A DNA stretch of 57,675 nucleotides, the filler included, from Asterionella formosa (Eukaryota), in NCBI GenBank assembly GCA_002256025.1. It is 6 parts of 6 records of this genome, joined end to end, with 100 filler letters (N's around TTAATTAATTAA, not from the genome) between each part and the next. Parts side by side here need not be neighbours in the genome. Positions count along the whole stretch, not along the records: positions 48,153 to 57,675 come from NKIB01010578.1; 5 more parts are not named here. One strand, given 5' to 3'. Shown piece by piece: positions 1,644 through 57,675 of the stretch. The position numbers and the translations under genes are program-made. Position 1 is the stretch's first letter; the number at the start of each line of letters is the position of its first letter. Below the pieces are notes generated by a model. It was not told where the DNA came from. It did not search any database and saw only the letters and a program-made list of their open reading frames with translations.

Positions 1644-3092
1644 ATGACAACAATCTCCACTATGCAATCATTTACGCAGCCAGTTTTCGCCAGTGCCAAC
1701 TGTGAAAGTCAGTATAATAATGCTCCAACAACATCATGGGGCGGGTCTGACAATGGTGCCGATGGGTTTGACTTCGACCTGTTGGCCGAATATCTTCTAG
1801 ATGATGGGTCAGCTCCTAGTGCATACACAGGAAACATGCCAACTTTTGATTTCAAGTGAGTATTTCTCAGGAACTGATTCTCTGGTTTTCATCCGACACC
1901 ATTCTCACTCAAATCGTGATCGTATGGTCGTTTTGCCACATAAAGTATTGACCCTGGTTTAACCTCTGGTGTCGTTTCACCCGAACAAAGTGATGACGGC
2001 ATGCCTATGATTTCGCCAGAAGGGCAACTGGCACCTGGATCATACCAAACCACACAGCTTTTAGCTCCATCTCAGTCTGCATATTATCAACCCTCGTATG
2101 CTCCACAAGCCCCGCAGCCAATGCAACCACCAGCCACTTTGGGCCATACTGCTTTGCTGGCATTGCCTGCGTACCAACCTACCGATATGCATACTCCAAT
2201 AATGCCTCCTGTGGCCAGCACTGCTGCCGTGGCAGCTGCGGTGGCTGGAAACAAAAGGCGTCGTGTGGATGCTCCAGTGATGCCTCCTCGAGCCCCAGCG
2301 TCTCTTGTCAATCAAGGACATGCGATGGCAATGGCAGTTCGCGGCAGACAAAAATCGCAAGCTCAGGTAGATCGTCGCCGAGAGAGAAACCGTATCTTGG
2401 CACGACGAACACGTCTCCGAAAGAAGTTCTTCTTTGAGGGTCTCCAAAAGGAAGTTACCGACTTGCAACTTGAAAATGCTGCTCTCAAGGAAATTGCCAA
2501 AAATGAACTCCCTGAAGAGCAGTCCAAGCAGCTACTGGAAGACTGCAAAGCTATGGACAACCTGCCAGAGGGCATTGCTGAAGCATGCAACGAAGGTTTG
2601 GATCTTGATTCTCAAGATTTTAGCCTTGTTCGAAGTATACAAAGATCCCAGCGGTGCTTTATTATCACGGATCCAAGTCTTCAAGACAACCCCATTGTCT
2701 ATGCCTCAGATGATTTCTTGTCTCTTACTGAATACAAGAGAGAAGAAGTATTGGGACGTAACTGTCGCTTCCTGCAAGGTACTGAGACTAGTACGCACAA
2801 GTTAGAAGAAGTACGCAAGGCTATCGCGAATGGAGAAGACGTTAGTGTTACAATGATCAACTACACGGCAAACGGTACCGCATTCTGGAACAAACTTTTT
2901 ATAGCTGCCCTCAGAGACGCACACAATAACATTGTAAATTTCATTGGCGTTATCGTGAAGGTCGCACACCCTGATCCCGAAGATCCCGAGTCTGGCAAGC
3001 GATTGCCAGGCGAGCAATCAACTGGCTCTGACGAAGACGACGACGGGGATTTCGACGACGCTGCCATGGGATTCGACTCTCATGACATGTGA
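1644..3092 (+). CDS. AUREO2: Aureochrome 2 (bZIP + LOV); exons 1644-1855 and 1946-3092
   Basis: bZIP RRRERNRILARRTRLRKKFFF followed by LOV (DNPIVYAS...GRNCRFLQG). RILARRTRLRKKFFF and NFIGVIVKV match my recollection of diatom AUREO2. In-frame GTGAGT...AAAG intron at 1856-1945. Confidence 0.93.
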
Positions 3093-9548: not shown

Positions 9549-9648
9549 NNNNNNNNNNNNNNNNNNNNNNNNNNNNNNNNNNNNNNNNNNNNTTAATTAA
9601 TTAANNNNNNNNNNNNNNNNNNNNNNNNNNNNNNNNNNNNNNNNNNNN
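9549..9648. other. artificial scaffold linker (N44-TTAATTAATTAA-N44); also at 19176-19275, 28803-28902, 38428-38527 and 48053-48152
   Basis: Identical 100-nt linkers with six-frame stops. The intervening segments are sorted by length. Confidence 0.97.
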
Positions 9649-14662: not shown

Positions 14663-14734
14663 TGCTGTTTGGCGCAGGGGAAGCGTGTTGGGCTCATAAC
14701 CCAAAGGTCCGAGGATCGAAACCTCGAACAGCAA
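14663..14734 (+). tRNA. tRNA-iMet: initiator tRNA-Met (CAT)
   Basis: Acceptor stem TGCTGTT/AACAGCA. Anticodon stem TTGGG-CTCATAA-CCCAA with three G-C pairs. T-loop ATCGAAA (A54, A60). T-run terminator downstream. Confidence 0.95.
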
Positions 14735-16142: not shown

Positions 16143-17401
16143 ACCTTGTCTTTGGCCTCCCAGACATAGTTGGATTGTTGGATTTGAATGTAAGTAAGCG
16201 AGAAGAGGAAGTGACGCGAATTCATAAAGATGATTTACATTCATCCACCAGTGCGCCAAAAACTGAGTTGGCGATGTCCATAAAATCGTCGTACCTTTAT
16301 TGCGTATCTTTTTATGACGGATTCGGGTAGCGCGCCCAGCAGCATTCGAGACATCATTTATAATCATGAAAAATTCATACACATGTGATAGAAGTGGACT
16401 AAAATAGTTTCGACAACTTTCATANNNNNNNNNNNNNNNNNNNNNNNNNNNNNNNNNNNNNNNNNNNNNNNNNNNNNNNNNNNNNNNNNNNNNNNNNNNN
16501 NNNNNNNNNNNNNNNNNNNNNNNNNNNNNNNNNNNNNNNNNNNNNNNNNNNNNNNNNNNNNNNNNNNNNNNNNNNNNNNNNNNNNNNNNNNNNNNNNNNN
16601 NNNNNNNNNNNNNNNNNNNNNNNNNNNNNNNNNNNNNNNNNNNNNNNNNNNNNNNNNNNNNNNNNNNNNNNNNNNNNNNNNNNNNNNNNNNNNNNNNNNN
16701 NNNNNNNNNNNNNNNNNNNNNNNNNNNNNNNNNNNNNNNNNNNNNNNNNNNNNNNNNNNNNNNNNNNNNNNNNNNNNNNNNNNNNNNNNNNNNNNNNNNN
16801 NNNNNNNNNNNNNNNNNNNNNNNNNNNNNNNNNNNNNNNNNNNNNNNNNNNNNNNNNNNNNNNNNNNNNNNNNNNNNNNNNNNNNNNNNNNNNNNNNNNN
16901 NNNNNNNNNNNNNNNNNNNNNNNNNNNNNNNNNNNNNNNNNNNNNNNNNNNNNNNNNNNNNNNNNNNNNNNNNNNNNNNNNNNNNNNNNNNNNNNNNNNN
17001 NNNNNNNNNNNNNNNNNNNNNNNNNNNNNNNNNNNNNNNNNNNNNNNNNNNNNNNNNNNNNNNNNNNNNNNNNNNNNNNNNNNNNNNNNNNNNNNNNNNN
17101 NNNNNNNNNNNNNNNNNNNNNNNNNNNNNNNNNNNNNNNNNNNNNNNNNNNNNNNNNNNNNNNNNNNNNNNNNNNNNNNNNNNNNNNNNNNNNNNNNNNN
17201 NNNNNNNNNNNNNNNNNNNNNNNNNNNNNNNNNNNNNNNNNNNNNNNNNNNNNNNNNNNNNNNNNNNNNNNNNNNNNNNNNNNNNNNNNNNNNNNNNNNN
17301 NNNNNNNNNNNNNNNNNNNNNNNNNNNNNNNNNNNNNNNNNNNNNNNNNNNNNNNNNNNNNNNNNNNNNNNNNNNNNNNNNNNNNNNNNNNNNNNNNNNN
17401 N

Positions 17402-18258: not shown

Positions 18259-18379
18259 ATGATCATCCCTAAACCATAAAATTATCTATTTAGAAACTAA
18301 AAGAAAAGTAGTATGAGCATAAACTAAATTAGATTAATGGGCACCAACATCTGTGAATAAAATTTCCACATTCCCATCA

Positions 18380-18930
18380 TCCCCTTGTTTCAATACCCGG
18401 TCGGAACATGATGTGGCTACTGTGAAACCATGCTGTTACTACGTTAGTACTGTGAAAGTGTAGGTTTGCCCTACCAGCATTCCCTTCTTCGCCTTGCTTG
18501 TTTCAATACCTGGTCGGAACATGACGTGGCTACTGTGAAACCATATCTATTACTACGTTAGTACTGTGAAAGTGTAGGTTTGCCCTACCAGCATTCCTTT
18601 CTTCCCCTTGTTTCAATACCCGCCGCTTGGAACATGACGTGGCTATTGTGAAACTATATCTATTACTACGCTGGTACTGTGAAACTGTAGGTTAGCCCTA
18701 CCAGCATTCCCTTCTTCCCCTTGTTTCAAATACCTGCCGGTCGGAACATGACGTGGCTACTGTGAAACTATACCTATTACTACGTTAGTACTGTGAAACT
18801 GTAGGTTTGCCCTACCAGCATTCCTGTTTTCCCCTTGTTTCAATACCCGGATGGAACATGATGCAGGTACTAAGAAACTATACCTATTACTACGCTGGTA
18901 CTATGAAGCTGTAGCTTTGCGCTACCAATC
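18380..18930. repeat. tandem array, 5 copies of a ~110-114-bp unit
   Basis: GTTTCAA(A)TAC recurs at 18387, 18500, 18610, 18723 and 18837. The whole unit is conserved, with two TACTGTGAAA-type boxes per unit. Confidence 0.92.
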
Positions 18931-19280
18931 TAATGTCTATTACTGAGTATGTCAGTGCTGCATCGCTTCCGATCCAGCACTTCTTGCCCACTGTCTAATC
19001 CTATAGTAGACAGACCATTATCCCTTTCTGCTTCCTTCTGTCACAGACACGTTTCTCTTGACATTCGCACGCTAGTATCGATAGTGCAATATATCACTTG
19101 TTATCTGGGCGGAATGGCAAATGTTCCGAGTGCTACAAGGAATGGAACGGTATTGGTTGTGAAGGGGATACCAATNNNNNNNNNNNNNNNNNNNNNNNNN
19201 NNNNNNNNNNNNNNNNNNNTTAATTAATTAANNNNNNNNNNNNNNNNNNNNNNNNNNNNNNNNNNNNNNNNNNNNTATCA

Positions 19281-20033: not shown

Positions 20034-20959
20034 GGTGTGTTTGTTGGTTGGATTGGATTGGATTGGTTCCTATAGTTAGTGATATTTAGTTGTAAAGGTA
20101 ACGTTGCTGTTAGTTTTGGAAATTATTTGTTTTATGCCGATAAACCACGAAAATTTCTGTTCCCTTTTCCGACTATGTACCAATACATCTGCCACAGAAC
20201 GTGGTGCCTATTTATTAGATATAAATCGTGATAAGAGCAGTTGTAAGAACCGTGCGATCGTCTGACGTCGCGTTTCTTTTTTGGTTTTTGTACATCGATG
20301 CATGAACTGGAGTACCGGTAGTAACCAGGTACCAGGTGTGAAGTCATTTCAACCAATAAAACGTATGCCATCGTGTGTTAAGTACTCTGAGTCCCAGTTA
20401 CCAGGTACAAGGTACCATACCGTTGTGTACTGGATACCAGGATCACGACTACTTGGTACCAGGTACCTGGTACCAGCAAGTTGCGGTCATTTTGCCGAAA
20501 CTGAAACGTGGCACCGGCAGGCACTCAAATTCGATTCCTCCGGAATAATTACTTAGACATTTAGGAATTTCAAACGGTTTCACGCTGGCCAATTAATTTC
20601 AATTATATCAAAATCTAATTTTAAAGAATAATTTTCTGAAAAAAACAGGAGTTTCCCAACTTTGCTACGATTGGGGTTTTTTCCGAATCATAATTCTGAG
20701 TGTCGAGATTCCTTATTCCAGAAAGCTCCTTGTTTACATCCATTTCATACTCCTATGATACGGGTACCAGGTACCATGGCACCAGGGAACCTGGTAATAT
20801 GAATTTAGAGAAGTGAACAGCTGTGGTATATTACCAGCACATCATATGGTGAACACACGGGTACGCACCATGCATGATGTTCTCTATACTGTTCATACAT
20901 ACATATTTATATGATTGCTCATGTAACGAACTTGAGAAATTCCCCATCACTTTGCAAAC

Positions 20960-24660: not shown

Positions 24661-25380
24661 TCCTCTCCCCCTAATATGTTTATAAAATCTGAAACTTATG
24701 GTAATAAAACTAGTTTCCAATGATGCTCCTATCTCCTATGTATGTACCAATTGATGTACTACCCAATATATCAGCATGTGGATGCAGGAGGTACCTGGTA
24801 CCTCCTGGTAAAATATATGCTCAGGGCGGTCTTTGCCGTAGTCACGTGATTATTTTCGTATTCTATCGCCTATTACTTTGTGGTGAGTTGCCCCCTGGTA
24901 CACACCTGGTACCCTGGTACCAGGTACCAGGTACCTGAGACCAGGTTACAGGCAATGTTCCATATCACCATGCTCCTTGAACATTATTTATATGTATGCA
25001 TATATATGATAAATAAAAAAATAATAATAAATATCATTTATGATGTCGTTCTGTTGATTTCGACATCAAGGATGGCATACGAACGGATTCTGGATTCCGT
25101 CCTCTTTTACACTCGTGTGTGGAAAATATCGTATGTAGCCTATTCATATCTGACCTACGTAAATGTCGAAGTGTTTGGTGAAACTGAAATCTTGTGACGA
25201 AATCATTCAATCAGAACAATTCTAACACAACAGCTAGGGTCTATTCCGGACTCCTCTTTATACATAATGCATCATACCATTTGGCTTTTGTTGTCACAAA
25301 AAATTTATTTTGTTATTTTGAGTTGAGAAACAAGCCATACTTTCCCATCGAATCACACACACATACCCACACACATCATC

Positions 25381-28802: not shown

Positions 28803-28902
28803 NNNNNNNNNNNNNNNNNNNNNNNNNNNNNNNNNNNNNNNNNNNNTTAATTAATTAANNNNNNNNNNNNNNNNNNNNNNNNNNNNNNNNNNNNNNNNNN
28901 NN

Positions 28903-38015: not shown

Positions 38016-40169
38016 GATTGTTTGGCGAGAAGTGAGAGTTCCTCAAAGTCAATGGAATTGTTCAACTGTGTTGCTTCTAGCAAAACAAAAACCACTCTGG
38101 AGGTGCAAATTGCCAACTGCAGAGCGTTTCTTTCATTCCAATAATTGTTTTTTGAAGGGCAGCATTCCCAGGTTGATGAATGGACTTTGAGACAGTGTCA
38201 ACACAGCTGCAACAGCCATCAAGGATGCATCAATTAGCTACATCAAACTAAGCTGATGATGACACTATGTAATAAATAAATAATTTTAACGATACTACGA
38301 AACTAATCCCAATTCAAGGCGACAGTAAAGGAACTCCTACGTAGCTAATAAACATACGTGCACAAAGAAAGCTCCAATAAAATGCAGAAGGTATTTGGTC
38401 CTTTCCACTTGCAACTCCCAATTCCCANNNNNNNNNNNNNNNNNNNNNNNNNNNNNNNNNNNNNNNNNNNNTTAATTAATTAANNNNNNNNNNNNNNNNN
38501 NNNNNNNNNNNNNNNNNNNNNNNNNNNTAATATAGTGATGATCAGGAATGCATGCATGATACTCTGATCAAATAATGAACGTGATGTATTCAGATAATAT
38601 ATAGATATATTCAAGTAAGCATTTTGATGTATTCAACTAATTCATGTGATCCATTCAAAATCAACTAGGCTTATTTACGTGATGGTCACTTCATGTAATA
38701 CGCGGCTTAGATGTGGATGTCGTTGCTCAGTCCCAAGTTTTTGACTCAAGACTTTGAAGCTGTAGCTAGTTCTGATGATTCATCACTCCCCCCTAGCAAT
38801 AATAGTCTACTAGTTGCTTTTTTGCCTTCTTCTTCTCGTTCTTGTTGTTCACTTCTCCTTCTCCTACTTCTTGATTTAAATTCATCTCCTAGACCAGCCA
38901 TGGTCAATTTACCATTTGAATCAAAGGCAGTATGTAGAGTAACTTCATTCTCTGTACTACTACCACTACTAGATGAATTTACGTGGTGGCCAATATGAAA
39001 ATTTTGACCATCATTACCCCAAACTCCACTGATTCCCCAAAAGCATTTCACTCATGATTATACAAACAAATCTAAAAGCTCTTGGGAAATCACTTTTGCA
39101 AAGGAAACAGTGGTGATATTGAGCAACATGGTGATCTGATCGAAGCAAACTAATTGGCATGATACTCCTTCCTGCAGTACTAGGGATAAGGATTATATAT
39201 TTTTCCCAGACCTGCGCAACGATAAATAATATTTTCTTGCAACCAGCCTTAGGACACCGGAGTAATTCATAAATGCATCCGTTCAAGAAACTATCTTGCT
39301 TGTCCGCCCAAGATTGAAGTGCCAGATGTAAGTCAATAGGTGATGTTTTGCATATACTGTACTAACATACTAGCTACCGGTTCTAGGTACTGCCTGGTAC
39401 CAGTACCAGTACACTACTGGTACTATGTACTCCGGAGTACATAAATGTATGCGTTGAAAAAATATGGCTGATCTTGCCTCTCCGCCCATGTACCTGTTAC
39501 TCCAAGACTTAGGCACCACAGTTCTGGTACCAGGTACAGCTGCCCTGGCACTGGTTGCAGGACCAGGATCAGTTACGGTACCTGGTACCAGGTACCTCCT
39601 GGTACTGGTAATTTGTTTTCTAGCTATTACCGGTATGTCGTCTACATTTCGACATGCCAGTATTCACCGAACGGACTCCTGCCGCTGGCGGACCCACCAT
39701 GAGTCACAACTTGACCACTAGCAAGTTGTGGTAGTTTGCTTAAATAAACAATTTAATCTGGGATAAAGGTAGCTAAATCTTTGATTCAGCAAAATTACCG
39801 CTACGTCAGCCCTTCGATCATTCGGTCATTGCTACACAGTGCGGAACTCCATCACGTGGGGATATGTCGTCACATGTTAAAAACCTACAAAGAAAACGAA
39901 GTAACCTCAAAAAGAGATGGTCAAGATTGTTCAGTATGTCATTCGAATAAATGAATTAGCAGTATCTTGCTCTCATGCGTACGACTGGATGAAACGCACG
40001 TAAAGAAACCGTTTAAATCTGTGAGTGGAATTGCTGGGAATCATCTTTGTCTCAAAAATTCAGTAACAGCCGAACGTAATTGTCATTTCCATAAATTGTA
40101 CCAGGTACACTAAAATCACTCTCTTCGTTCTCTCCTCCATCCCTTCGATTGACCGAGCGCTCCCACACA

Positions 40170-45719: not shown

Positions 45720-46652
45720 CAAAATTGTTTGGGTGGCTATGGAGAGGTAATTATCCATCAGCATTCTGATGGAGTAGGAGAGAAACCATTTATTTGGCCA
45801 TATTTAGTAATGTATGTCAACTTATGAAATGCTATTGCCCTGGCATCCAAATCTTCTCCTTAACGACAAGCGCTCCATGTGAAAGGACAAAGATGATCTA
45901 GAGCTGCAGCCAACACCATGTTGGCTGAGCACATCAAAGCAAACAAATTGTCGCATTGTTACTTGTTAGGGTCAAGGATAATAGATTTGACACAGATATA
46001 CGTTCAGGGACCAGTTTTAATTACTTTTTGTAGAAGGGTCCTGTATGTAGGGAAAGAAACCATCATCATCAGACTTGTGTACATCGTTAGTCGTCACATA
46101 ATAGCTACGTATAATTAACGGAAATACCGGTATACAATGTTTTCCAATAGTAATTAAGTACCAGCACCGGTTACCGTTGCATCCATCCATAGTATGTATG
46201 ATGCGGATCATTCTCAGTAAATAATTTCATTGCAACCTCCTCCCTTCCTCTTTTTTCACACAGAAATAATGGCAGTCTATTTCGGCAGTCAAAATTAGGG
46301 GGCTATTGAAATCTGGTCATCAAGAATGTAACAACATGAGAAATATCGAATGGGCAATTCTACTATTGACTGCCTAATGCAATAAGTGAAGATGTGAAAT
46401 ATTTATGTGGTCCATGTTTTCTATGAAGGGCAGTTGGCGCAGCGCCGGGGGCGTCGTTTGTATTTTCCCATGCCTATATGTATGTCCGCCCCTCCCCAGC
46501 CTCGACAAGAAGAAATACTCGCAGGCGTCGTCCACCTACTGCTTTAATCGTGTCATAGGTGTGAGCACAGTGCGCACCTCGTCGCAGCAAAGAAGTGTGT
46601 CTGAAGGGAGGAAATAATTGCAAAATCGCACCCAGAAATAAAGGAAAATACG

Positions 46653-48052
46653 ATGATGAGACGTCGGATAACCCTGCTCCTGCTTGGACTATTGGCAGTG
46701 CCCACATCGTCTCAAGCATCCAACTGTACCGTCGTGTTGTATCATTCTGATCTCAATCGAGATGATCGGTTGGATCAATCGGAGTATGTTATTGCAACAG
46801 ACATTATGTCTGGGCGCGCCTTGAATATCTTTGATGAGTACTTCAGCAATATTCCGCTGGTATTGCAACAGACATTCGAAGACTTGAGATGTCGATGCCG
46901 CAGTAGCAGTAGCAGTAGCAGTAGTAGTATCAGAAGCAGCCGTGTGAGCGATTGCTGCGGCAACAGCGATGCCACCATCGATATTACAGGAGCATCTCCG
47001 TATTCAACTCCGACCCTTTCCGATGTACAGTTCTTGAACGATACTTGCACGCAATTGGAAAGGACAATTCGTCGAGTCTTATCATCGAGTTACGAAACGA
47101 AATCGCAAGTGTCCGTTCGACAAGCAACGCCAGCGCCAACACCGTCACTTACACAATGTGAAATTGCCATGGTCATTGCGGATCGGGACAAGAATGATTT
47201 CTTAGATCAAACAGAATATATTGTTTTTGTCAATCGATTGTCGTCAAATGCCTTTGGCAGTTCCTTTGATACTTTACCGGACGTTTTGCAAGAAAATTAC
47301 TTTACTTTGTACACTGTTGGTGCCGGAATCGATGTCATGGGATCAAAGCCAGGAGTTAACACGACGTCGGAGCAACAAGCCCATTTGGATACTGTTTGCT
47401 CGAGTACATCCGCGGCCATTGGTGCTGCCTTGGGAGGAGGATCTCCAGTGGCAGCAACTCCGACGACCGCTGTGCCCACAACGCGAATACCAACGACTTC
47501 GCCACTTCGTCCAGTAGCTGCACCGACAAATGTTCCAACCAGTTCGTCGGTTAGTCCAACCACAATGCCAACGAATGTTCCAACGACGTCGGCATCTGGT
47601 CCCACAACATCCATTCCAATACCAACGACAACCACTCCATTACCCACAACATCCTTGTCAACGTGTACTATTAGTTTGACGATATCGGATCGGAATCAGA
47701 ATGACTATTTGGATCAGTCCGAATATGTAACCTTTGTCAATCGCCTTTCGAGTAGCACATGGCAAAATTCAAATTTTATGGAATTGCCCCTTGTGTTGCA
47801 AAACAATTACTATTTTCTGGCAGATGGTAACTCCAATGGAATCAACGTGCAAGGATCCAAACCAGGCTCATCGCCGACAGCAAATCAAACAGCAAATCTG
47901 GAAAACATCTGCTACCAAACTGATGTTTCAATTGATTCCGCTCTCAATCCAACGCCGACTGTTAGTCCTGGAACAACAACTGGACCGTCGCAATCAAGCC
48001 CAGAACCAACATTAAGTCCAGTAAGTCCTGTGCCCACTACAAGCCCTGCCAC
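46653..48052 (+). CDS. secreted protein with at least 3 Cys-bounded EF-hand-like repeats and Pro/Thr mucin linkers, 3'-truncated
   Basis: Signal peptide. Loops DLNRDDRLDQSE, DRDKNDFLDQTE and DRNQNDYLDQSE, each followed by LP/IPxVLQ..I[DN][IV]xG. PTT-rich spacers. Confidence 0.85.
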
Positions 48053-48152
48053 NNNNNNNNNNNNNNNNNNNNNNNNNNNNNNNNNNNNNNNNNNNNTTAA
48101 TTAATTAANNNNNNNNNNNNNNNNNNNNNNNNNNNNNNNNNNNNNNNNNNNN

Positions 48153-48280
48153 TCACATGAAACCGTTAAAAGTAATCTTTTTTACGTGAAGAGTGGCATT
48201 AATGCATGTGAAGTACCACATAATTAACACTCATACGTAGACGAAATTTCGAAAAGTGGCGTATTTCGCGTCTTAGATGT
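48153..48280. repeat. ~128-bp repeat, copy 1 (copy 2 at 50738-50866; diverged partial copy near 50472)
   Basis: TCACATGAAACCGTTAAAAGTAA...AAATTTCGAAAAGTGGCGTATTTCGCG.CTTAGATGT in both copies. Similarity ends abruptly. Confidence 0.88.
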
Positions 48281-48759
48281 GTCTCAACTTAGACCAGTTG
48301 CTGTTTGATCGAAGACTGCTTACAGAATGATCCTTTTAATCATCATTAGATCATATCTAGTTTGCTTCTTTAATGTTCCTTGATTTTGCGGACATATCTG
48401 TAATTGTCTTGTCAATCATTTATTGATTTGGCCTCTATGTCTGATCGCCCTCTAGAGTCCATTTAAAAGGTTAGCGAGAACTTCTCCTGAAAGTTCCTCT
48501 CTAATCTGTGGCATTTACACGAGATATTTAACCATGTGTCCTTGAATCAATCATCTAGAGGATTGTGGTACATGTTCCAAATCAGGTCACTAGAGACGAA
48601 AATATATTGACACTCTCATAACCTGATCTGGAATCAGGAATCTCTATATATTTCAACTTCATAGATAATATTTTAAAATTAAAATACGTGGATATATGAA
48701 TTTATGTATTGTTTACCATCACACTACAACAATCAGCAGCTGCTCAATCAATTGAAATT

Positions 48760-48940
48760 CATTAGGTGACGGAGCGTGCGCAATACCACGTTCTCGTACA
48801 AACATCCTAACATTGTTGGTATCTATAGGTGATGGAGGGCATGCAATAACACGTTCTCTAACAAACAAGGTGACATTGGTATCTATAGGTGATGGAGGGA
48901 ATGCAATAACACAGTCATGTAGAAACAGCTCACCATTAGT
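48760..48940 (-). repeat. 3 copies of a ~60-bp repeat that may encode a ~20-aa unit
   Basis: TAGGTGA[CT]GGAG...GCAATA.CAC recurs. Minus-strand frame reads VIA(F/C)PPSPIDTN..LFVRER. Confidence 0.7.
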
Positions 48941-50737
48941 TCTTATATTTACTGGTGATCATGCATCATTTATGAGTACCGAAAAGTATTATCTGTAAAG
49001 CCTTGTGTTTATATCCTATTCGTTCAATAAATGCATATTGATCATATGATAATGATGGTATTAATATAAAAAACTAATAATGAAAATTAATTTTTAGTAG
49101 TAGGATATATGGATGTTAAAAAGAAGATCAAAAAGGTAAATATTGTTATCTGTGATCTAATTTTATTGACAATCTTTTCTAAACAGAAAGCATGATCTGT
49201 AATTCATAAACTTTTATTCATGTATCCTACAAGTTTGATCAAAGCATATTTATCATATGATAAACGGTGTCAATTATATGAGAAAATAAATCATCTAATT
49301 ATTATATGATTTGTACCAAATGAAAAATTTTGCATCATGACTCCCGCTTATTGAGGGGCTTAATTAAATCACTTACTTGTAGGAACAAGAATTGATACAG
49401 TACATCATGTCAAGGAAAACAATGATATTATATATTCGAATTATGTATATGCTGAACTGATTATAGTATACACATGATGTGAGATGTAAAGAGTGTCTTC
49501 GAACTATGAAATTGTTCAACTGTACACACATTTATACATTTACCAAAATTTAAAGATTTATACATGGCTAACACATTTGAAATCATGTTTAAATGTCCCT
49601 TTTCATGCATACCGGTAACACATCCTGTTTTGAAAGATCACATCAGCCACATGACAAGAAAAACTGAAGTGACGCTACAACACAACAAGGATAAATCTTG
49701 TGGCTTAGATGGATTGAAAATGAAAAATTGAATGGAATCTAACCATGATACATCAAGGTCACATGCCAGGAAGATCGATTGTTGGATTCACAAAGACTAA
49801 ATGATCGCTTCCTTCTCAAGTGATTCAATAGCGCATTTTCATTCGGTTAGAAACAGCCAATGTGGACAAAAGAAAATTGGTAAGTGCTCTTGTTGGATCA
49901 ATGCGCAATTTTTAAAACATAACTGACTCATGAGTGGTTTCTATCTTTCAGGATAATTGAAATCAAAAAGTATTTGTTGTAAGTTATAAATGACCATATT
50001 ATTTATTGATGTGTACTTATGCGATACTGGACAGTCATATTATAATTCAGAAATGTTCGAGAATATATCAATAATTAGAAGAATTTTTTGTGGTGTAAGC
50101 AAGCAAACCATTACTAACAAATTTCTGCCTCTCATTGTCACTACGATTAGGATATCAATACAAATTGTAAATGAATCCGCATCTTATTTTGGTAGCAATA
50201 TTAAATGTTTTGTTCCGTACCTGTTTTGTCCTCATTAGGGTTGGTTGTTGCTTGCATGATCCTCACGAATCATGTCGCGATATTTCTCGAGATCCATTTC
50301 GCTCCGTTTTCCTCAATCAAATAAGGGCAGATTGCAATCAAACAATTAGTAGTGAAGTCGTCTTTCGCAATGATTTATCCTCTAAAAAATTTATCTTGAA
50401 CATTTAAATGTTTTGTTGTAACATCAACTAGTCCTGCCTTGGAAATAACTGTATGATTGTGAACCAGCCATCACATGAAACCACGATAAGTAATATTGTT
50501 CAGCAAAACAGTAAATATTATTTACGTGAAGTGCACAACCATAAACTGTACCTGGTAGCATGAATTAAGACACCACAAATATCCTTACTATTTAACAAAG
50601 GAAGATGTATGTCGTAAATGAATTAGCCACGAGAGCAGGATCTTAGTTGAACTTTGAAATGAATTATTTGAATCATCAACTAATTCAGTTTCGAGTTCAA
50701 AGTTTATTGGGAAATCTTCACATGAAACCGTTAAAAC

Positions 50738-50866
50738 TTCACATGAAACCGTTAAAAGTAACCTTTTCTCCGGGAAGAGTGGCATTAATTCATGTGAAGT
50801 ACCACATAATTAACACCCCTACGTAGAACAAATTTCGAAAAGTGGCGTATTTCGCGGCTTAGATGT
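50738..50866. repeat. ~128-bp repeat, copy 2 (probable transposon end), preceded by a 21-bp tandem duplication
   Basis: Direct repeat of 48153-48280. TTCACATGAAACCGTTAAAA is duplicated at 50717 and 50737. Confidence 0.85.
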
Positions 50867-52572
50867 AGGACCTATGGAAAGGAGCAAAAAGGTAAGCAAA
50901 TGTAAAACCGACGTAACACATAAGAGGAAAAATGAGCAAACAGCGATGTGAGGGCAAACAGAACAAGGTAGATGAGTGATTGGCAAACATTTCCTTTCTC
51001 AGTTGAGTGACAGTGAGGACAGTGAGTTAGTCTATAATCGACGTGAGAAGTGTGGGAAGCAAGGGGAAGGCTCAGTCAACCATAGGAGTCGCCATCATGC
51101 TGCAGGAATCAAAGAACAAGATAAGGTGGTGGCATAGGGTAAGGATGGCGAAAAGGCATTTAGCAGGTTGAAAGATAGAAATAATTTCTAAATATAGCAA
51201 GATTACAATCTATTTCACCATATTTTGAGCAGTCACTTTGATTAAAATTACAATCATGTGAAAATAAATATATAATGAAAGAATATACATCACATGATAT
51301 TGGTTTGGATAATTATATGGTCTGTTGTTTATTATACGCATGCTTGACATGAAAATATACTTATAGTAGGCATTTATCATATATATAATAAAAAAAGTAT
51401 TATGTGGCGAAAAATTCTGTGTCAGTTAGCATAGGATACCTGTGATCTTATAGATGTAATACATTTTATTTGCAGATGCTTGTTGACATTGCATTCATCT
51501 GCTACTTCGACTGCCATCATTCTTATTATTCATATGATGAGTGGAAAAGTCAAAGAGAAGCAGCAACATTAGTATCCTTAACATTGTCAGTACCAATACC
51601 TGTATTTTCGTGGAGACATTAGCTATTTTCGTCATGGTCAAGGTATTGATGAACTCAGCAATCAACAGAAGTGTTGAAGTGGAAAACAGTGAACTACATA
51701 ATTTATGAGTGGTCAGAGAGAGACACAACTCTAGCTAACCTTGCCGGTGCGATGACGTTCTGGGATGCACATGGAAGCCTGATGGGATTCTTAGGAACCC
51801 AGAGGAAGACTTCAGGGTTCTCAACACAAGGCTGAGATGACATTCTCCAACTGATCACAACGACTACACTCTATTACCGGTATTTGCTTTGTATGCAAAA
51901 ACAAATCGCATATAGCACAAGCGCTTCCTCGGGCGGGTACCTGGTTCCATGGTGCAGTAACGTTACGCTTGTTAGGAGCATACCGGTAATCCAGCCATAA
52001 ATAGCTTCTAACGGTCGTTTTACGACAAGGAATCTACTCGTATTTTCCCTGTTGAATGCAACTTGCTACATACTGATACTGTGCACAAATACGAACCCAG
52101 AGAGGGAGCAGTATTGTCGCCCCCAAAAAAAGCTACAATAGAGTATGTACATGTATGCTAAATATATAGTGCAGATGCAGAGATCGATTCGGTGCTTTCT
52201 CGTTCGACGACAAAACATACATCACGGAAGACACGCACAAGAAACATCGACCCGTCGTCTCGTAGCACAGAGTGAAGGTAGGCCTGTATCTAGCAGCTCG
52301 TAGAAATTTTAAGACAGAAAAACAAAAAACTGAAGGGAGAGTAAAAAATCTCACAATGAACATATGAAATTCATAAAATACAATTATTTTATAAACCAGA
52401 TGGCATACCGGTAGTTTGCCTTCCGGATACACGCAGAAGGAATCCAATTCTTAGATTTGATCCCTTGACATCATCAGTGGATAGGGTTCCATTCGCTCGG
52501 ACACTTATCATGTGGATGTGATGACAGTCGATGTTCTTGGAGAATGAGAATAAAATTTCATATGCTTAGTAC

Positions 52573-52830
52573 TTAGTGCTCCTCTGCATCATTCACTTTG
52601 CCAGACGGATGGATCAAAAATTCGGCAAGTGCCAGTTTCGCAATGAGTGCTTCTTCATCATTTGTCGACGTCATTTGCAGTACGCGATCTTGTTGTTGCT
52701 GTAGTTCTTCCGGATGCCCACGGAGGAATCGTTCAGCGCTTTCTACAACGTTTGGCTCCATCATGTTGAGTAGGACTGCGGCAACACAACAGCCAGCAAC
52801 GAGAGCCAAGAGATTACGAGCAAGAATCAT
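52573..52830 (-). CDS. small secreted protein or gene fragment with RxL propeptide-like motifs
   Basis: Hydrophobic leader, then RFLRG and RVLQ. A possible downstream exon is disrupted. Confidence 0.45.
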   Translation of the reverse strand: MILARNLLALVAGCCVAAVLLNMMEPNVVESAERFLRGHPEELQQQQDRVLQMTSTNDEEALIAKLALAEFLIHPSGKVNDAEEH

Positions 52831-53104
52831 GGTGTGGTTATGTGTTGTGTGTATAGGAGATGATATGTTTTGTCTAAAATGGATTTATCGAGATTGATGA
52901 TTGTGTGGTGATTTTTTTAGTAACGATACATATTTTACATGTGGGAACTTGGTGCATTTGTTCTTTTTGGTGGCTGATGGTGATGGCATCATCGGTGTCT
53001 CGTTGTGATGTTGTAAGATAGAGTCCTCCTACCGGTAAATGCCACTGAACGTTCCTGAACATTCTACATTGTTTGGATACGGAGTGACTACTGGTACTGG
53101 AACC

Positions 53105-53196
53105 AGCAAGTTGCGGGCATTTTGCTTAAATAAACATTTTGATCTGGGACAAAGATAGCTACCTTTTTAGCTTCAGCCAAAATTACCGCAACTGCT
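53105..53196. mobile_element. ~92-bp MITE family member (related copies at 39720-39801 and a left end at ~20476)
   Basis: TIRs AGCAAGTTGCGGGCATTTT / AAAATTACCGCAACTGCT. Core TAAATAAACA.TT..ATCTGGGA.AAAG.TAGCTA is shared with the 39.7-kb copy. Confidence 0.65.
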
Positions 53197-53880
53197 TGCA
53201 GGTACCTGGTACCATTTATTGTGTCATTGTTGTAAGGTGTCAGAAAACTCTTTGATAACGACAGCAATTTGTACATAAAGGAGTACCAGGGTAGGTACCT
53301 GGTACTGGTCGTCTAGTAAACCCAATGTACTGGCATGTAACAAGTTTTTTTAGAGAAAGCAACTGCCGGTACCAGTACCAGTGTACCTACCGGTAGTCTT
53401 CGTACATTATGTAAATTCATTCCGGTTTACCGGTACCTGGCAGTAAGTAGTCTGCAGATATGTGGTGCACTGTGGTGTCGGCGCCGTCAAACCCAACAAG
53501 CACCATACCCGATACCGGTCTATCGCAAGATATAGGATAATGATCAAGCAAGAGGAAACCACGATTTTTCATGCTTCTTAGAGTCGTTCTTATCATTTTC
53601 GATTTGGTATCATTTTTTTGAAAAAGTATCATGTAATGGCTACTCAATTTAAACCGAAAAAATCCATTCTCCACAAAAATAAAAATGAAATTGTATCACC
53701 AAAAAGTATCACGAAAATTCAACGGTTATGGGCTGGCTACAATCATGTGCATATCCCTCCAGGCTTCCCTCCAGACTATTTCGATAATTTTCCATGACTA
53801 AAACCATGTAGGAAAACTACGCGTATTATGTACCAGTATAGAATATATAGCTGACATACCTGCTAAATTCTTGATTTGCC

Positions 53881-55250
53881 ATGAGTCAACACAGACATGC
53901 AAGATTGTCTATACACTTCTTCTTACACTTCCGCTTGATCAACGATGGCAATGATGATTATGTTAATGATGTCATCAGTAATCAATTTTTTGATAATGAA
54001 AACAACCATAAATTCTTTGATTATGATGACCATGATCAATTATTTATCCTTTGTCATCTGGCTCTGGAGGCTGAAACGAAAGTTAAAAAGAGGAAGGCGA
54101 AATGGGAGCATGAAAGAATGTCATGGCATTCTCTTGTCAAGAAGCTGTGTCATGAGGACGTTTTGAAAAGACTTATAGAATGTCCCTTCGAGCCTTTAAG
54201 AAGTTGGTTTACTTGCTGGAGAGTGATGTCATTGGGAATTTCTCCAAGTGCGGTACAGCTACTCCCATTTACCCAGAAATTGTGCTGGCTGTTGGCATTT
54301 GATGGTTGGCTGGAGGCAGCTACATGTTGACATTTGTCATGCCTATGGATGTAGCATAGCTTCAATCTATAGATGCCGAGACTTATTTCTTGAAGCTGTG
54401 CTTAACTGTGATTATCTGAAAATTATATTTCCTAAAACAAGGAGTGATTTTGTGAAATTGGCTATAGCCTTTGAACAAAAGAGCATGGAAGGGTTGATCA
54501 GAGGGTGTGTTGGTGCTATTGATGGTTTTCACGCTACATGACTGTGGAAACAATCCAGGAGCTTTTTATTCTGGACATTAGTACATGACTTATGGTATCA
54601 ATGTTCAGGCTATCTGTGATGTTGAGAGTAGATTTATATTTTTTGGGGTGATTGCTCCTGGACGATGCAGTTATCAAGTTGCGTTTGAGAGAACTGCTCT
54701 ACCCAAAAGAACTGCATTATTTGATTCTGGTTTCTATCTTGTTGGTGATGCAGCATATACATTGTCAGATGTCATGTTAGTTCCATTTGTTGGTTCTCAG
54801 CATGATGACCAAACACAAGATGCCTATAATTTTCTTCTTTCCCAGCTACGGATTAGCTAGGATAGAGATGGCATTTGGTTTGTTACAGACAAAATGGGCT
54901 GTTCTAAAAAGAAACTTAACAACTGGCTTGGAAACAACTGCAAAAGTGCTTGAGGTATGTGCACGGTTGCACAATTATGTCATAGACGAAAATAAAGTTG
55001 ATAAGGATATTTCTGGGTCATCTGGAAGTGATGAGTCAGATGACATCCAGGAGATTTTAGCTGAAATCACCCCAGTCTAAATTCTCCACTTGGTTGGGGA
55101 TATTTGCCAACGGTTGAGAAATTGGATGTAATGCCTGGTTGTTCTGTCATTCGAGATGTTATTCTTGAAAGAATTGCTAACATGGGTTTACAAAGACCTC
55201 CAGGTAATATTGAAAGAAAAAGGTTGGAATTACATGAATTAAATTTAATG
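53881..55250 (+). pseudogene. Harbinger DDE_Tnp_4 transposase, frameshifted
   Basis: GCVGAIDG, YGINVQAICD, YLVGDAAY and RIEMAFGLLQTKW...CARLHNY across four frames. Confidence 0.9.
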
Positions 55251-55299
55251 TAGATTATAATTGATTGTTGAAAAAAATTATTCATTTCATTGTGTCACC

Positions 55300-56800
55300 T
55301 TGAGACAAGAGATTGAAGACCTGATCACGCTTTCTTTTACACAATGCAATTTCTAAACGAGCTTGGACAATGTCAGAACTTGAAGAGTCATATTTCTTTT
55401 CGAGTTCTTCCAGTTCCTCCCGCGCAACTCTTAGCTAGTCGGACCTTATACTTATCCAAGACATCCAGTAGATCATTTTCTCTGCGTGGTGCAGTTGTAG
55501 ACTCAAGCAGTCTGAGTTTTGCAACATTTGACTTCTCAAATGATTCCAATGCACTTGCAAGTTTTGATAAGATGATGTAGGTTTTTGCGTCAAGATTGCA
55601 TGTCTTCCCTTCTTTCTAACACTGAAATTGCTTGAAGATTTTGATTTTGATGACAATATGGTGGCAGTATCGTCAATGTCTGTACTCTCACGGAAGCAAG
55701 GCATAATTTGGTAACAGTGGTATAGCAAAATTCAATAGATGCGGAACTTGACACAACCAAAGATGGTAGTAATATATGAAATGACATGACCCAACAAAGT
55801 TGACAAAATCATCATGATTGCCTGATTGTTTGTTTTTTGGATAGGCAACTTGATAATGATGATTACTGTACCCCACTACCAATGAAAAGTCTTTCGAAGT
55901 GAGGAAATCATATTTTTTGCGTAGTCAGCATCAATTCCAACTTGGTCCCAGTATTCATCTTCGGGAAATGCTAGAATGGTACAGTCGTCATCCTCATCAT
56001 CAATATATGTGACAACAAGTCGATCGAAAATGAACTTGTGTCGAAATCTTCTTGCATCAAATTCAGCCAGAGTTGGTGGCTGACCTAGACGCAAAACATC
56101 ACTGCGATGCTTGTTGCACATGTAGACATTAATGACATGGAAGAATGTGTTGCTGCAGATCACAGCATCTGGAGGGGTTGACTTTGCCTGTGCCTTATTC
56201 TTTTTCGCTTTTTTTACAGGAGGGTTCACTTCCTCTTGTTCAAACTGAGGATCAACCAAAGACTCATGTGGCAGCACTGCTGTTGCCTCTTGAACTTTGT
56301 CGTTCCTTTCATCATTATCATCTTCGCAATCTTCATCAACTTTGAATTCCTCGTCATTAATTGATGAAAGTTCGTGATTATCATTATCACTATCCAATTC
56401 AATGTCTGATTCATTGACATTGAAAGATCTAGGGTATATCCTCTGTGACAAGCTGTCTCTCTTCAAAAGTCGAACAATCAAAGCAACAGTGAAAGCCTTC
56501 TTCGCATTTTTGTATCCAGAAACTTTGTATCTGACGCAAATTTTTCGGAGAACCTTGACTGAGATCTGCTTCATTGCAACACCTTTGATGAAAATCACCT
56601 GTGTCCTTGCTTTCACTATCAAGCACAAAGTCATCAGGAAGTATGAGGGAGTCAACAAATCGATCGACTTCAGTATCTGTAGCAAGAGACTGCATTGTAT
56701 TGTTGAAGGTGGTGGGTTGATCTTGATATAAAGTGGTCTCCACATCAACAGTTGTTGTTTGCGTTTGTGTGACTGGTTCCATATGCGGTTCCATTTGCCT
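55300..56800 (-). pseudogene. Harbinger accessory ORF2, convergent with the transposase, frameshifted
   Basis: ORF 55876-56748 plus flanking fragments lie inside the TIRs. Basic LRKICVRYKVSGYKNAKK segment and an acidic tract. Confidence 0.7.
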
Positions 56801-57350
56801 TGCTTGTAGTATCTTCAGGGAGATTCCAATGACTGATCTGTAGTAACAAATACACAAAAACACTTGGGAGTTACAAGATCGCCAATATAAGTAAGTGGCA
56901 AGTATAAGTTTCTTTCTGGTGCTGTATAATTGTATCAATGGTGTTGCTTGGACGATGTAGTATGCAGCCAGCATAAAATTGAAGGAATAGTATATGCCAT
57001 TAATATTATTGGTGGTGCCTTGCCTTGCAGGCTTATTTTTGGTTATTTTATTAGTGACAACGGAAAGGATACCCGCATGAAAATGTCAGTATCACTGATA
57101 TTGTTTTTGGAGGGGGCAAAAAAAGGTATCAATTTTGTATCAATGATACAACATTGATACCATCAAGTTACTGTTGCTGATACCGTGTTTTGATACCAAC
57201 CGTCACTTTTTGCCCGCAACCCGGAAATGATACAGCAAATGCGGAATGATAAGAACGACCCTTAGTACATAGCTACCGGTATGTAGAAGAAGCAGCCCAT
57301 TCAACATGGATATGCAGTACCAGGTACTCCTACCACGTATTACTGAAGGA

Positions 57351-57675
57351 AATACACGCCCGAGGTGGTCTCTTGCCTGCGAGGTACCTGGTACCTGGTA
57401 CCTGGTACCTGGTACTGCAGCTGCTGCTGCTGCAGCTGCTGGGTTGGCTGACCGGGGAAGGACGGTTTTACCTACAGGTACGCAACAGGTATTCGGGAAC
57501 CAGGTACCAGGTACTTTACTGGTACCAGTATACATGTGTTCGAGGCTGGGTGGCGCGAGTAGGTTGACCGTACGAGTGGCGCCCCCGGCGCTGCGAGAAG
57601 GTCACCCTACGAGTGCCATCCCAGTCGAGTACACATGTATACGAGAAGGCAAGTAGCCGCCGAGAAGGGTATTGT
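57351..57675 (+). other. fold-back element with periodic CGAG/CGAG tandem G.A pairs, interrupted by a ~143-bp GGTACC-array insertion
   Basis: Hand pairing puts five CGAG pairs in register once 57384-57528 is removed (see findings). Confidence 0.8.
57384..57526. repeat. insertion bounded by (GTACCTG)n on the left and (CAGGTAC)n near the right, with an internal (GCT)n run
   Basis: GTACCTG x4 at the left end and ACCAGGTACCAGGTAC near the right end. Flanked by AG on both sides. Confidence 0.8.

Follow-up and report, generated by a model that had tools for sequence, protein, structure and literature searches.

Results

Genomic context and features of the locus

The window, i.e. the whole stretch of 57,675 nucleotides of Asterionella formosa DNA that was analysed, has a G+C content of 41.5% and is eukaryotic and diatom-like in character, encoding a bZIP-PAS protein, a P-type ATPase, an ABC ATPase and other ordinary nuclear genes. 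The bZIP and PAS protein (2001-3092) has an aureochrome-like architecture as judged by its Pfam domains. Paired runs of 44 N recur every ~9.6 kb (9549-9648, 19176-19275, 28803-28902, 38428-38527 and 48053-48152), and there is one run of 977 N (16425-17401); these runs look like masked stretches and not like biology. Contigs of four public runs from four studies (X1, X2, X6 and X7) were compared with positions 48153-57675. In this part two direct repeats of 128 bp (48153-48280 and 50739-50866) are 92% identical, and a joint from 48257 to 50657, which skips 2399 bases, is present in all four runs; possibly the pair reflects a nested insertion, or the solo and the full form of another repeat.

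Near the end of the window lies a palindrome of ~165 nt, the left arm of which is interrupted by a 145-bp block at 57384-57528. The features needed to describe this site are as follows.

46440-46535, minus strand: partial, diverged paralogue of the host palindrome in which GCCTGCGAGTAT is unbroken, an empty site (local alignment)
53559-57675, no strand assigned: many-copy repeat that contains the palindrome and runs past the window end (summed contig depth)
57359-57383, plus strand: outer left arm of the host palindrome, ending GCCTGCGAG (folds; loose-end consensus of other copies)
57384-57528, plus strand: inserted block, missing from other host-repeat copies and from the paralogue at 46440-46535
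57383-57415, plus strand: left array, GGTACCT x4.7 (Tandem Repeats Finder, 100% matches)
57415-57441, plus strand: CTG/CAG triplet run of 9 triplets (repeat scan)
57442-57498, plus strand: unique filler of ~57 bp, probably copied from the donor locus (its 20-mer 57446-57465 matched donor contigs)
57499-57528, plus strand: right array, ACCAGGT x2.3 and then TTTACTGGTACCAG (identical to the donor through the last base of the block)
57529-57670, plus strand: inner left arm, centre (~57585) and right arm of the host palindrome (inverted repeat I1; fold z = -5.1)

The host sequence to the left of the block has its last base at 57383 and restarts at 57529 with TATACATGTG. The block itself begins with four complete GTACCTG units (57384-57411), which are followed by GTACTGCAG; towards its end there are two CAGGTAC units at 57501-57514, with one further unit at 57475-57481, and a partial unit CTGGTACCAG at 57519-57528, which ends in CCAG at 57528. 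With T-type units on the left and A-type units on the right, the two arrays face each other, and AG flanks the block on both sides (57382-57383 and 57527-57528). A sequence-only reading of this stretch, which had described a block that begins with (GTACCTG)x4, carries the reverse-complement CAGGTAC near its end and has AG on both flanks, was accurate on all three counts. The block also carries inverted arms of 16-19 nt (I2 and I5), which are made up solely of heptamers, and an inverted-repeat search revealed no similarity between the two ends of the block beyond the heptamers. A source of the filler inside the window was not found, the best other matches being 9-14 nt long.

The host palindrome belongs to a many-copy repeat

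In all four runs the summed contig depth, which is not equivalent to copy number, is tens to hundreds of times higher in the bins covering 53559-57675 than in those covering 51969-52922, with the highest value of all in the bin 53559-53876, and up to 97 variant contigs per site of the repeat were seen in X1. The raised depth together with the variant contigs indicates that the palindrome sits in a many-copy repeat. A second long copy of the host repeat (53000-57675) was not found within the window, and the palindrome had no match in Rfam at gathering thresholds, where the only match in the window was a tRNA (14663-14734). No Pfam family was assigned to the host-repeat ORFs 55879-56814 and 56432-57085 (minus strand) or to P0001, a relative of 502 aa with 88% identity, and in a protein atlas these ORFs matched unnamed stramenopile clusters only. 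GGTATCA/TGATACC motifs recur close to both ends of the visible part of 53559-57675.

Some host-repeat copies join 57379, 57380 or 57383 to 57626, 57628 or 57629, skipping 245-247 bases with a 4-base CGAG ambiguity; such copies therefore also lack the inner ~101 bp of the palindrome and keep a short hairpin form. The paralogue at 46440-46535 represents half of the palindromic module. It is located ~120 bp upstream of an ORF, delimited as 46653-48104 or 46653-48052, whose Ser/Thr/Pro-rich product has a hydrophobic N-terminus and is unrelated to the proteins of the repeat; the palindromic module may also occur independently of the large repeat.

The block is an insertion younger than the palindrome

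In contigs of the four public runs 57381 is joined to 57527, so that exactly 145 bases are skipped with a 2-base ambiguity ('cut +2'). This joint was found in 21, 12, 8 and 8 contigs of X1, X2, X6 and X7, respectively, with 38-39 letters on its shorter side, and these contigs represent further copies of the host repeat in which the site is empty. Loose contig ends at 57383 run on as TATACATGTGTTCGAG, and the consensus of the loose ends of other copies before 57527 is ...GGTGGTCTCTTGCCTGCG. Furthermore, the paralogue aligned locally to the block-deleted host with a score of 52, compared with a mean of 20 +/- 2.7 and a maximum of 30 for shuffled sequences; against the intact host the score was 37, and the right-hand part alone was aligned. 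When the block was deleted by script from the host sequence (57355-57675), the DNA folded into a single hairpin with a helix unbroken through the insertion point, at -48.2 kcal/mol against -29.1 +/- 3.7 for 200 shuffles (z = -5.1).

This confirms that the block is a true insertion in one of the many copies of a palindromic repeat, and the empty sites in the contigs and in the paralogue establish that it is younger than the palindrome. Both the restoration of the hairpin upon deletion of the block and the relative age of the two had been proposed in the sequence-only reading, and the empty sites that it suggested seeking in other copies of the hairpin do exist.

The interior of the block is contiguous at another locus

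A metagenome scan for exact copies of the 20-mer 57446-57465, which lies in the core of the filler, returned nine matching stretches, diverged copies escaping a scan of this type. Five of them (L001, L003, L004, L006 and L009) represent a single eukaryote-like locus with a G+C content of 0.43-0.44, referred to here as the donor locus, the flanks of which are unrelated to the host repeat; the remaining four (L002, L005, L007 and L008; G+C 0.62-0.71) were rejected as chance matches. None of the nine matches placed the filler in a host-repeat context, and none placed it in a third context. The five donor contigs are near-identical haplotypes from metagenomes of other samples; four of them are similarly named and may not be independent of one another. 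In BLAST searches against the window L009 gave E = 2.7e-53 and the other four donor contigs gave 4e-49 to 8e-49, the largest value being 7.6e-49. Aligned with positions 57395-57528, L009 showed 126 matches, 4 mismatches and 4 gap columns, and L001 and L003 each showed 123 matches, 8 mismatches and 3 gap columns against the block.

In the five contigs the donor locus holds ~127-134 bp of the block as one uninterrupted stretch, which extends from the last left unit through the CTG/CAG run and the filler to both CAGGTAC units and the terminal CTGGTACCAG. It follows that the filler and the right array had existed together elsewhere, and that the arrays arrived with the filler. The filler differs from the donor by two substitutions (TTCGGGAACC versus TTCCGGTACC). 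The CTG/CAG run has 4 triplets in donor alleles of the L001 type and 8 in L009, as against 9 in the block, so that the block resembles the L009 type plus one CTG. In the left array only the last GTACCTG unit has a counterpart in the donor contigs, the three extra units (21 bp) being without one in all five. The donor region itself contains no long open frame and is packed with arrays.

The homology between block and donor ends exactly at the right edge of the block (57528): past CCAG the donor continues as GTACCAGG and the host as TATACATG. On the left side, unambiguous homology starts from ~57402, and 57384-57401 is pure array, in which the boundary is not fixable. In both donor allele types CCAG directly precedes the unit before GTACTGCAG, which reads GTCCTG in L009 and GTACTG in L001, in each case one base shorter than the GTACCTG of the block. 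With the cut shown by a slash, the left junction of the donor is CCAG/GT(A)CCTG-GTACTGCAG, its right junction is GGTACCAG/GTACC, and that of the host is GCGAG/TATACA. The donor has CCAG at both boundaries, which matches the host GCGAG with AG in common, and a microhomology of AG exists at both boundaries if, for the left one, the three extra units are assumed to have been gained later; at 2 nt, such a match has a chance of ~1/16 per junction and is statistically weak. Both ends of the copied stretch also share the same repeat-unit phase, after CCAG and before GTACC.

Heptamer arrays are abundant and change by whole units

GGTACC is the most over-represented hexamer in the window (44 observed versus 8.4 expected), and GGTACCWGGTACC has 13 matches in the window versus none in each of 100 dinucleotide shuffles. 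Similarly, TACCWGGTA (25 occurrences) and TACCGGTA (19) occur at ~50 times their second-order expectation. As judged by titles and the opening parts of abstracts, no literature on GGTACC-type arrays in diatoms was found. Another stretch of ~145 bp, at 24790-24935, has GGTACCT x2 on its left (T-type) and GGTACCA x2-3 on its right (A-type), and its interior is unrelated to the block. At 18369-18927 there is a 114-bp tandem repeat of five copies (86% matches) with a variable spot containing CCGG or CCTG; no clean heptamer insertion was found among these copies.

The donor contigs differ from one another by three whole units of 7 bp, namely TACCAGG in L001 and GGTACCA and TACCAGT in L003. The last of these looks like a duplicated degenerate unit, that is, a neighbour duplication rather than a fresh stereotyped insertion. 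In addition, a 6-bp GGTACC between GGTA repeats is missing from L004, L009 has a 12-bp duplication in its CTG/CAG run, and the contigs also differ at an ATCAG microsatellite, with few substitutions over the unique parts of the ~2 kb donor locus. The arrays are among the most changeable sites of this locus. Adjacent units have the same middle base more often than different ones (6 versus 2 in the window, 7 versus 1 in L006). Given the whole-unit changes and the shared middle bases, unit slippage would explain both the growth of the arrays and the four-unit left array of the block. A T-type left unit and A-type right units taken over from the donor, with the left unit multiplied to four, would account for the head-to-head look.

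A small transposon resides in the same kind of array

An element of ~95 bp, CAAGTTGCGG...CCGCAACTGCTTG, is located at 53105-53199 between GGAAC-CAG and CAG-GTACC, outside the inserted block, and further copies or ends of it lie at 20473-20510 (after GGTAC-CAG) and 39722-39804 (after TAG). Its general pattern is CAAGTTGCGG...CCGCAACT(G)CTTG with CAG on both sides inside GGTACC arrays, one copy being preceded by TAG. In the reads, the CTG at 53192 is missing from other copies, the ends of which thereby become perfect inverted repeats, and summed depth is raised in the bin that holds the element (52923-53240). TA-duplicating ends (CCW...WGG) had also been considered; in front of the copy at 39722 stands TAG instead of TA-CCA, and ends of CAAG...CTTG with CAG or TAG flanks fit all three copies, so this reading was dropped. 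The element fits a CWG-duplicating (NuwaI-like) MITE, CWG duplications being given in PMC4482050 as the defining character of the NuwaI group of PIF/Harbinger-like elements.

Discussion

Relation to known systems

The block resembles filler DNA, as produced by synthesis-dependent microhomology-mediated or polymerase theta-mediated end joining, in that its source lies elsewhere with the donor kept, that a 2-nt microhomology is found on both sides of the junction, and that a repeat-rich donor template invites repeated dissociation and re-priming. It differs from the usual local templated insertion in its length of ~130 bp and its unlinked template. With a donor elsewhere (five of the nine metagenome matches being one locus), microhomology at the junctions and a one-off occurrence combined with empty sites in homologous copies, the block would belong to this known kind. 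[quoted passage not shown]

Like the MITEs of the Tc1/mariner Stowaway-like and PIF/Harbinger NuwaI groups, the block is small, has inverted ends, has an empty paralogous site and sits among arrays. Unlike the former it has no TA duplication and unlike the latter no CWG duplication, the flanks GCGAG and CCAG sharing AG only. Moreover, the complementarity of its ends is that of generic heptamers and not of element-specific terminal inverted repeats, and by the exact 20-mer scan it occurs at two loci in all, i.e. its own and one other, with no further copy in the window. Slippage in micro- and minisatellites, through which near-identical haplotypes come to differ by the gain or loss of whole 7-bp units, accounts for the left array with its four units; slippage alone does not provide for a 60-bp unique filler that is present at two loci. 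Telomerase-mediated chromosome healing is comparable in that short G/T-containing repeats adjoin a presumed break, and it differs in that the arrays of the block pre-exist at the donor, the repeat is palindrome-based and no chromosome end is involved.

Proposed origin of the block

We regard it as probable (about 0.65) that the block is ectopic filler DNA, which was copied or captured into a break in the palindrome arm and subsequently altered by slippage of its left array. Long palindromes are prone to breaks, and a double-strand break may have arisen in the left arm of the long palindrome of the many-copy repeat, presumably owing to this fragility. The broken end ...GCGAG-3' would then have paired through AG with ...CCAG in an array of the donor, synthesis would have crossed the donor as far as the next ...CCAG, and the new strand would have been released and joined to the other end, with AG used again. 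In this way ~130 bp of an array-rich intergenic locus from the same kind of genome would have been copied, or else captured as a fragment, and the left array would have grown from one GTACCTG unit to four through unit slippage, either during the synthesis or afterwards. Templated insertions are less usual when they exceed 100 bp and derive from a distant template than when they are short and local, and for this reason a captured free fragment with these borders would explain the block as well as templated copying does. Whereas the insertion, its donor, the exact right boundary, the AG at both donor boundaries and the whole-unit changes of array length are observed, the break and its cause, the polymerase, the joining pathway and the time of the unit gain are inferred.

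Alternative explanations

The block might instead be a tiny non-autonomous mobile element with heptamer-array ends, mobilised at a constant phase of GGTACC by a transposase or some other nuclease, a possibility that the sequence-only reading had offered as its second choice and that we consider unlikely. Its inverted arms of 16-19 nt and the equal phase of the two ends of the copied stretch would suit such an element, and genuine small transposons do sit inside such arrays in the window. However, the arms consist of heptamers and nothing more, and the equal phase is also expected when AG is used twice. The 20-mer of the filler occurs at one other type of locus, and a self-comparison of the window showed no other dispersed array-bounded duplicate, its nine pairs consisting of seven local tandem pairs, one 128-bp direct repeat and one MITE. 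Flanks of GAG and CAG, or AG, are neither a TA nor a clean CWG duplication.

To a similarly small degree, ectopic gene conversion may be invoked, in which the host copy acquired heptamer units first and a later break then used the donor arrays as homology, copying what lay between them. The arrays are dispersed through the DNA of the window, and in one other host-repeat copy 57383 and 57537 are separated by TATACCGGTAGATT, apparently a micro-insertion of CCGG type in the same TA-rich place; that copy has two further substitutions and comes from a single contig. Nevertheless, the left junction reads GCGAG-GTACC and not GCGAG-TA-CC, as expected from units added at TA, and among the copies listed there is no intermediate with a short array at the site.

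We also give little credence to a broader reading, according to which GGTACCW arrays are dispersed joints and array-bounded segments are lifted from one place and set down in another, a micro-mobility free of any transposase; small circles formed between units of equal phase, or template switching seeded in the arrays, may serve as its routes.

The sequence-only reading had suggested that both 3' ends of the break were extended with the same 7-mer and then joined, the extension being due either to an activity resembling telomerase or reverse transcriptase or to snap-back synthesis on GGTACC; we consider this very improbable. The T-type left and A-type right arrays do face each other, and three GTACCTG units have no donor counterpart; yet at the donor locus the filler is continuous with both the right array and the last left unit, so that none of the three was made at the break, and no complementarity exists between the two sides beyond the heptamers. 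De novo repeat synthesis is accordingly not found for the right array and the last left unit, and repeat addition could apply at most to the three extra units (21 bp).

Finally, an assembly artefact, in which the assembler spliced the block in, deserves scarcely any weight: the host is a many-copy repeat with arrays that recur elsewhere in the sample, the loose ends at 57383 and 57415 agree poorly with each other, and no contig among those listed bridges the filled junctions, but the host consensus restarts at the very next base after the block, which is unlike a chimeric join, and host and donor have no long word in common at the junctions.

Implications

If the origin as ectopic filler DNA holds, the locus is a clean case from nature in which a diatom-like alga mended a broken long palindrome with sequence taken from an unlinked locus, and recipient, empty sites and donor are all available for it. 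An exotic repeat-adding activity would then be unnecessary at the site of the block. GGTACCW arrays change by whole units between near-identical haplotypes, and they can mark the borders of copied segments. Should the arrays indeed act as joints, they would reshuffle intergenic DNA in this diatom lineage. A single case is insufficient for a general claim; if array-bordered patches are common, the arrays would drive intergenic rearrangement in the lineage.
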